A DNA stretch of 62,650 nucleotides, counting the filler, from Sluysia triapertura (taxonomy: Eukaryota), in assembly GCA_046118255.1 (NCBI GenBank). It is 4 parts of 4 records of this genome, joined end to end, with 100 filler letters (N's around TTAATTAATTAA, not from the genome) between each part and the next. Parts side by side here need not be neighbours in the genome. Positions count along the whole stretch, not along the records: positions 14,077 to 34,636 come from JBJNIA010011096.1; 3 more parts are not named here. One strand, given 5' to 3'. A model generated the notes under the pieces. That model worked only from the letters and a program-made list of their open reading frames with translations, was not told the origin of the DNA and did no database searches. The position numbers were made by a program, and so were the translations under genes. Shown here piece after piece: positions 20,827-22,772 of this stretch (within the stretch, counting starts at the first letter, position 1; each line of letters starts with the position of its first letter).

Positions 20827-22772
20827 ATTATTTATCGAAGTTCCAAATTGTGGGAATGATCCGTTTGAATTTTCTTTATTATTAATTAACTTTGATATCA
20901 TATTAAGTGGCTCATTTAAAGTACTCTTTTCTTCTTTTTCTTTGTCTTTAATAATGTTCTTCCATCCTAGTCTTTCAATTAGAGTACCTAATTTCTTATC
21001 GACTAAATTTATAACTTTATATATCTTTTCTTGAGTTAAAAGTGCAGCTTTATTACATTGAGATATTATATAAGCCATTATTATTAAGTCTTTCTCTGTT
21101 AATTCCTGCGTTAATTTGTTTATTAATTATTTTTTTATATTGACCTTTATCTATGAAGTCACTTATGTCCGTATTCTTATATTTTTCCTCCATTATTTTA
21201 ATTATCTTTGATAATGCAATTTTTTATTCTTTTAATTCGGGTATTGGTCTCTTATATTTATCAAAATTAGAAAATTTATTAGATAATAGTGTGTAAATTA
21301 TAGTTTCTTCTATATTCTTGTAAGCAATTTTTGTTAAGTCAATAGGTTTTCTATGTATTGGGGTTGGTATTGTTTCATCATCATTATCTTTAATTTTTCT
21401 GGGTCTTCCTGGTTTTCTTTTAAAAGTATTTGTTTCTTTATCTTCAGTTTCTACATGTGGGTTTTTTAAATCTATTATGTAGTCAGGTTTACCTTCAGTG
21501 TAATCATCATTATCATTGGTAATATCTATAATTTTGCTTTCATTATAATTATCTATAACTTTATTTTCATAATTATCTTCCATTAATGAGCGTGGGGTTC
21601 TACCTAAATCAACATCAGTTTCATCATTTATTAATTCATCCAACTTTCTTAAATAATCTGAAGGCTTTGTATATGTCATTATAACTACAGAAGTCATTGA
21701 TGTTTCCTCAGGGTTTCCATTCATGGATGGATGACCATAATCATTTATATAATCATTAGGTAATAATTTTCTATCATAAAAATATAATTCAACATCAGTT
21801 ATATCAGAGTCATTTGACTTGAGTAATTCTATAATATCTTTTGCAATTGAAGTAACTGGGAGTTCCATAGTAATAATCAAAGCATTATTAGTAATTATAC
21901 TTATTTTCATTAATTCTTTAGGGTTATCTTTTCTTTCTTTTTGTCCTATTTTTCTTAATAATTTTCTTTCTTTAATTTTATATAAACTATCTTCTTTACT
22001 TAGAATAGCTAATACTAATTTTATATCATGTCCATTTTGTAAACTTAATTCTGAATTCTATAAGTGATTTAGATTTTCATTTAAGTCTTTGCCATGAGTC
22101 ATATTTGATGAAAATTCTTCAACTTTTTGATCATTTTCCTTAATTTTAGTTTCTGGAGTATTTATTTTATCGTTAGCATCTATTATTATTATTGATTCCA
22201 TCTCTTTTGTTTCCATATCTTCTGTAGCACTGTAATAAGCATCTTCTTAATCTATTTCCATTTCTTCTGCTTGTATTTCTTCGTCATCTGTTTCTATATT
22301 GTTAAGGATATTATATATCTGTTTCTACTTTTTGATCATCACTTAGTTCTAAGTTCTTTTGTTGATTTTCTTCTTGCTTTATTTCTTCTTCCGTTGAACT
22401 TGATTCTATACTTGATTCTTCTTCTTTTTGAACTGATTCTGTATTTGATTCTTCTATTTCATCATTACTTTCTATTTCTCTATCAAGTGGCTTATTTAAT
22501 TCTGATTTCTTCGTCTTTTCAATTCAATCCAGTATTATATAGAATTTCCGTAGCATTGCATTCTTTTCTTCATCTGAAATTAACTTAAGATATTTATCAT
22601 CTTCTTCTTCTTCACTACTCATTTCTCTTCTTCTTGGTTGTCTTCTATTTTTATTTCTTTCTTCTGTATACTGATGTTCTTTATCTTCATATTCATAATT
22701 TTTTTGGCTTTTATAATTACAATTTACATGTCCCTTATTATTCTTATTATTATCATTAAACCTTAGCTTCAT
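20827..22772 (-). pseudogene. Gag C-terminal extension: Arg/Glu-rich and acidic linker, ubiquitin-like domain (from 21910), AT-hook (KRKPGRPRK), helical segment leading in frame into the env signal peptide
   Basis: ORFs 22524-22772, 21224-21910 and 20242-21078 are joined by a few stops and about 2 frameshifts; MKISIITNNALIITMEL...IIELLK...VELYFYDRKLLPNDYINDYG parallels the ubiquitin fold pattern. Confidence 0.6.

Follow-up and report, generated by a model that had tools for sequence, protein, structure and literature searches.

The Gag-Env spacer of an abundant env-bearing retroelement from Sluysia triapertura holds a probable ubiquitin/SUMO-like domain and a basic motif resembling an AT-hook

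What lies between Gag and Env in a broken, env-bearing retroelement of Sluysia triapertura, and does it stand in the place of pol? The question comes from a first-pass annotation, which described a ubiquitin-like domain and an AT-hook embedded between Gag and Env of an LTR element. We analyzed the locus within a window, by which we mean the whole stretch of 62,650 nucleotides, made of four parts of the genome joined end to end; N runs around a short fixed spacer are present at 13977-14076, 34637-34736, and 50116-50215. The window is AT-rich, with 20-29% GC in most 1-kb bins. The reading that we favor, with a probability of about 0.55, is that this is a decayed copy of an abundant Gypsy-type env-bearing retroelement, likely of the flatworm Gag-Env-Pol kind, and that its Gag-to-Env spacer holds a probable non-conjugatable ubiquitin/SUMO-like protein-binding module carried on cytosolic Gag.

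The features of the element are collected in Table 1. Gag, spacer, and env share one orientation on the minus strand and span about 4.3 kb from gag to the end of env; both gag and env are broken. In the Pfam scan, PF24664 (Monjiviricetes fusion glycoprotein) matched three env pieces, with E values of 5.7e-20, 3.8e-17, and 5e-13. The proposed position between Gag and Env held, with a Gag scoring below cut-off on one side and a PF24664 Env on the other, but the repeat comparison found no LTR pair in the window, only a primer-binding-site-like sequence. The peptides were found where they had been placed. The peptide MKISIITNN...INDYG begins at 21910 on the minus strand, and its Met is residue 50 of the open frame P0001 and not the start of the frame.

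Table 1. Features of the element in window coordinates, in the order in which they are read on the minus strand.
Feature	Position	Strand	Basis and remarks
Primer-binding-site-like sequence	23744..23759	-	5' edge of the element; starts TGG; 9/12 bases agree with the 3' end of Met-CAU tRNA (supplement of PMC13524379); weak
Gypsy-type Gag capsid region	23098..23440	-	Stops and frame change; PNMA E=0.0016 and Retrotrans_gag E=0.15, both on the X read-through translation of Gag and both below Pfam cut-offs
Single CCHC zinc knuckle	22842..22884	-	Split over two frames; zf-CCHC about E=0.003 (0.0028), below Pfam cut-off
Acidic low-complexity linker	22060..22780	-	Several broken frames; from sequence and translation
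P0001, 277-aa stop-to-stop open frame with the domain and the basic motif	21224..22057	-	Translation
Probable integral ubiquitin/SUMO-like domain, about 80 aa, no C-terminal diglycine	21671..21910	-	Register tests, ESM atlas, and predicted strand order
AT-hook-like basic motif KRKPGRPRK	21395..21421	-	Set in an acidic stretch; pattern compared with shuffles
Pre-env region	20950..21346	-	Stop and frameshift; BCL-2-like by eye only
Hydrophobic signal-peptide-like internal segment before Env	20770..20826	-	Kyte-Doolittle 19-residue mean 2.22
Class III (gB/chuvirus-type) envelope glycoprotein, at least 3 pieces	19065..20826	-	PF24664
Env membrane anchor	19143-19199	-	Hydropathy 2.24

The class of the element was assessed from its env. 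The env motifs HVYQE and GHHSHS occur three times and once, respectively, in the published table of gB-type Env proteins (PMC13524379), in every case in Schmidtea mediterranea elements, which suggests that the host is likely a flatworm. The order of cysteines and motifs around these two motifs looks colinear with that of Schmidtea errantivirus Env, as judged by eye. According to the main text of PMC13524379, gB-type Env is the sole kind of Env in the errantiviruses of Platyhelminthes, Nematoda, and Bryozoa, and their order is Gag-Env-Pol. In the window, a Gypsy-type gag (with matches below cut-off) lies directly before a gB-type env, and the copy stops just past the env membrane anchor. Since no 3' LTR follows env, this copy looks cut off rather than complete. 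The Schmidtea-type env, the Gag-Env-Pol order, and the stop after the anchor together argue that pol was probably lost downstream and not replaced, so the earlier placing of the two features at the usual site of pol is likely mistaken. The element is likely to be a flatworm errantivirus of Gag-Env-Pol order, truncated downstream of env, with the place of pol borrowed from its presumed relatives.

A search of the minus strand between 14080 and 34600 turned up no pol motif, Pfam matched nothing in four frames beyond env, and the high read depth described below stops near 19170. These results would agree with a non-autonomous gag-env family that has no pol, is mobilised in trans, and carries the ubiquitin-like domain and the AT-hook in place of pol. 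However, such a family appears unlikely: the missing 3' LTR next to env marks the copy as cut off, the closest env relatives place pol after env, and read depth is visible solely over sequence that is present in the window. Loss of pol downstream of env is the reading followed here.

Elsewhere in the window, a 148-aa frame at 16602-17048 on the minus strand, with no Pfam match, resembles by eye part of a protein-primed DNA polymerase of the Polinton/Maverick type. On the plus strand, 36527-36835 presumably holds a pogo/Tigger-type transposase HTH fragment and 51099-51446 presumably a saccharopine dehydrogenase-like exon, both assigned by eye. Pieces of host genes (Vts1-like RNA-binding domain, Mo25, tyrosine kinase, and C2orf69) were also present on the plus strand, at 4791-5774, 10872-11207, 15412-15927, and 32478-32972.

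The ubiquitin likeness of the spacer was analyzed by a three-block ungapped register test with free linkers. The segment scored 41.3, in comparison with a shuffle mean of -7.3 (sd 10.2, maximum 29.9), and this score was reached by none of 1500 shuffles and by none of 310 other slices of the window. The blocks were picked after the sequence had been seen, and the test is therefore a directed one. The register z was about 4.5-4.8. With a second set of 36 ubiquitins the register z was 3.5-5.1, whereas 127 decoy templates gave 2.9 or less; the ubiquitin-like template set consisted of true ubiquitins only. Hydrophobic residues were found at 14 of the 16 positions that we take to be the ubiquitin core, a count equalled by 12 of the 1500 shuffles and by 16 of the 310 window slices. 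The best local match in hhalign fell, unprompted, in the same register as the three-block test, with a probability of only 0.2.

In the ESM atlas, nine of the ten best family-bearing matches belonged to the PF00240 family or clan, with listed scores of 0.86-0.89, which are at lead level. Clusters of PF11976 and PF00240 made up six of the seven family-bearing rows among the matches listed, and the top three matches were unnamed clusters (0.90-0.92). Both AlphaFold models of the domain (pLDDT 60.4 and 62.7) showed the order strand-strand-helix-strand-strand at ubiquitin-like positions. The identity to ubiquitin in register was 12 of 63 aligned residues, or about 19%. No diglycine was present after the last predicted strand in the window copy, as the first-pass annotation had stated, and the domain would thus be an integral one rather than a conjugatable ubiquitin/SUMO modifier (type I). 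Taken as a claim about fold, we consider it likely that 21671..21910 adopts a ubiquitin-like (beta-grasp) structure.

Other searches did not return ubiquitin. Pfam gave no family, whether of the ubiquitin clan or any other, for the P0001 frame or for the domain segment. An HMM built from 95 distinct viral ubiquitins scored the segment at 0.8 bits, and 272 of the 1937 reported shuffles scored as high; global pairwise alignment gave z values of 0.6-3.2 over four ubiquitin templates. Both AlphaFold models were made from the single sequence, since there was no homologue alignment, and neither was seeded with ubiquitin rows, which would have been circular. Structure prediction followed by fold search had been proposed as a check, and no beta-grasp was listed among the fold matches of the two models at pLDDT 60-63, a result that does not exclude the fold. 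The best matches were to an RPB11/RNA polymerase alpha-like fold, at Z 6.4 (rmsd 3.9 over 68 residues) for one model and Z 7.0 (rmsd 2.1 over 65 residues) for the other; Z values below 8 are common, and this assignment was not accepted.

The spacer might instead hold a real folded domain under selection that is not a beta-grasp, its likeness to ubiquitin being a chance product of the common strand-strand-helix-strand pattern. The unmatched Pfam clan, the 0.8 bits of the HMM, the RPB11/RNA polymerase alpha-like chains, the other window slices with an equal core count, and the unnamed clusters at the top of the atlas all point that way. We regard this reading as rather doubtful, because the register z stands above that of every decoy, hhalign picks the same register unprompted, the models are of low confidence with Z values flagged as common, and a presumed relative, Burro, has PF11976 in the same interval. 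The ubiquitin pattern reported for this peptide was thus recovered by the register test and the atlas, but not by Pfam, the HMM, hhalign, or the fold search, and a ubiquitin-like domain is the assignment kept below.

Homologues were also sought by sequence. None was found for P0001 among 3451 candidates from longer proteins, for the env piece among 4001 candidates, or for the Gag read-through among 97 candidates. Scans of viral and metagenome contigs confirmed no homologue, and a sequence search of the PDB returned nothing below E 0.4. When P0001 was compared with 1.84 billion representatives, the one match, a bacterial HEAT-repeat protein, was rejected as chance. In the pre-env region, at the position where Burro has BCL-2, BH1- and BH2-like spots can be seen by eye; neither Pfam nor the PDB supported BCL-2 within 20950-21346, where two shallow viral templates gave E values of 0.3 and 0.1 and hhalign a probability of 0.3.

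The basic motif was compared with AT-hooks by pattern. The pattern [RK]PGRP[RK] was found in none of 20000 shuffles of the protein and appears a single time across all six window frames, and a looser AT-hook pattern was found in 4 of 20000 shuffles. KRKPGRPRK resembles an AT-hook (PF02178) in having a GRP core with basic flanks, between Lys/Arg residues, in a likely disordered region. It differs in its core, PGRP, with Pro for the first Arg of the canonical RGRP, in being a single copy, and in having no PF02178 match in the Pfam scan. The term 'textbook AT-hook' therefore overstates the case: the GRP core and its basic flanks stand, but the RGRP core and a Pfam match do not. The Pfam scan that had been proposed for AT_hook and Ubl matched neither. 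From its sequence, KRKPGRPRK appears to be an AT-hook variant that is unlikely to have arisen by chance. Because it forms a basic island within an acidic stretch, nuclear import would be an alternative role for it.

The abundance of the family was determined from read depth. In run X1, each bin between 19170 and 23839, spacer included, had a summed contig depth of 41,000-176,000, while unique flank contigs had a depth of 15-16; on either side of 19170-23839 it fell to about 1,000-1,500. Summed depth is not a copy number, and the gap between element and flank is three to four orders of magnitude. The data showed that the element family is very abundant and that the Gag-Env interval is kept across its copies.

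Run X2, which is labelled as another organism, carried the same family over 19170-23839 at a roughly 200-fold lower depth and mostly with the same majority differences as X1, which may reflect a relative or DNA carry-over. Further repeats of very high depth lie beside the element at 18236-18702 and 26642-27108. The stretch 18541-18591 matches 57377-57427, inverted, at 96%. A 95-nt inverted match of 76% identity, between 24296-24386 and 18093-18184, flanks the element and possibly represents copies of a small DNA element.

We also analyzed the variants over the spacer, of which 40 of 61 rows were listed; variants were scored singly, and the sites are not independent. Among the rows listed, there was no insertion or deletion within 21385-21925 and no variant in the basic motif. 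At share thresholds of 0.8, 0.9, 0.95, and 0.97, the variants shared among copies were synonymous in 8 of 15, 9 of 16, 14 of 23, and 14 of 24 cases among these rows, where 24% would be expected (P from 0.014 to 0.0002, depending on the threshold). The differences private to the window copy, again among the rows listed, were synonymous in 4 of 16-17 cases at the two strict thresholds, as in neutral decay, and in 9 of 24 to 10 of 25 cases at the loose ones. For the domain alone, the synonymous excess was marginal (6 of 14, P 0.05-0.11). Conservation across family copies, the further check named in the first-pass annotation, was accordingly seen for the frame, which is shared and has a synonymous excess, but only marginally for the domain itself.

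These features could be joined in one mechanism. Judging from orientation, spacing, and the layout of Burro, the frames most likely once formed a single polyprotein. Env would be directed into secretion by its internal signal peptide, and Gag with the spacer would stay cytosolic. The protease would be supplied by a pol lying 3' of env in intact relatives. The ubiquitin-like domain may act as a decoy or adaptor for host proteins of the ubiquitin/SUMO pathway, a role already suggested for the cargo of Burro. Nuclear entry or minor-groove DNA binding may come from the basic PGRP motif.

Retroviral budding can be driven by a ubiquitin moiety fused to Gag, and this element has both Gag and Env; the domain might thus mimic ubiquitin and take over the role of a late domain by drawing in ESCRT for budding. 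The surface used by the ubiquitin-binding domains of ESCRT is the Leu8/Ile44 patch of ubiquitin. However, Asn and Tyr stand at the Leu8 and Ile44 positions in the three-block register, and these changes, with only 12 of 63 residues identical, would alter the binding surface and therefore make ESCRT mimicry quite improbable. In pestivirus polyproteins, ubiquitin inserts create cleavage sites, and the domain could likewise be a cleavage signal through which a host deubiquitinase or SUMO protease processes the polyprotein. We consider this very improbable: cleavage by a host isopeptidase is unlikely because the diglycine is missing, the relatives encode a protease of their own, and the signal-peptide-like segment already separates Env. 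For want of the diglycine, the earlier proposal that the domain helps to process the polyprotein without a viral protease is also unlikely. A decoy or adaptor domain on cytosolic Gag is the function that we prefer.

A broader scenario can be drawn, in which a compact flatworm env-bearing family and the giant Burro elements share an ancestral cassette for host manipulation, made of a ubiquitin/SUMO-like decoy followed by a BCL-2-like domain in the Gag-Env interval, the AT-hook tethers Gag to AT-rich chromatin, and the family is very abundant, possibly with no pol of its own; as a whole, it is speculative and unlikely to hold. Confirmation of the fold would mean that the ubiquitin/SUMO-like cargo of giant Burro extends to a compact Gag-Env element. 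This would suggest that the accessory module is old in flatworm retroviruses and has been under selection, and it would make available a domain of 80 residues, far easier to study than a polyprotein of 5,000 residues. With a genome of roughly 23% GC, a Gag-borne AT-hook, if true, would offer a simple way to target integration. At present, the locus adds one more member and one detail to a described group.

Among known systems, the window element is similar to Smed_errantivirus_1-6 (PMC13524379) in having a Gypsy-type gag followed by a gB-type env, with no pol between them, and in being multi-copy; the Schmidtea elements have 1-215 intact copies each. Unlike them, the window copy has neither pol nor LTRs. 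The main text of PMC13524379 has no occurrence of ubiquitin or AT-hook and does not describe the Gag-Env spacer. Anakin (PMC7642597) is likewise a retroelement with a chuvirus-like class III glycoprotein, but it is a mosquito BEL/Pao element with Gag-PR-RT-RH-IN plus the glycoprotein, and the text of that paper has no occurrence of ubiquitin. Troyka, as presented in PMC12440569, was judged not relevant to the module, and the text obtained of PMC8532177 and PMC11410931 held nothing on the domains. The domain itself is similar to integral ubiquitin-like domains (PF00240) and to the SUMO-like domains of Rad60/Esc2/NIP45 (PF11976) in register, in predicted secondary-structure order, in being embedded in a longer protein, and in having no diglycine; it differs from them in having no Pfam match, about 19% identity in register, and a longer loop before the last strand.

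Another parallel is with Burro/GYPSM1, giant planarian Gypsy elements present in thousands of copies (PMC6431247). As described there, their order is Gag with CCHC, cargo, a Ubi2/SUMO-like domain (PF11976), BCL-2, an in-frame Env, and protease, and their Env is related to mononegavirus fusion proteins. The same source, reviewing Grohme 2018 and Jurka 2007, puts Burro ORF1 at about 4,900-5,100 aa; its knuckles number two or three, and its cargo includes MATH, BIR, and ankyrin domains, among others. Planarian Burro elements are thus a published precedent for a ubiquitin/SUMO-like domain located between Gag and Env (PMC6431247), and the view of this domain as unusual cargo for an LTR element was not borne out. 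Neither the AT-hook-like motif nor the compact layout turned up in the literature searched or in the main text of PMC13524379 and PMC6431247, and literature listings on ubiquitin-like or AT-hook cargo gave nothing further than these two papers; PMC6431247, in its text, names no AT-hook for Burro. MATH, BIR, and ankyrin cargo gave no Pfam match in the frames scanned. The window element is thus unlike Burro/GYPSM1 in its compact span from gag to the end of env, in the one knuckle seen, and in a BCL-2 likeness that is by eye only, and it is like Burro/GYPSM1 in having a CCHC in Gag and, probably, a ubiquitin-like domain in the Gag-Env interval.
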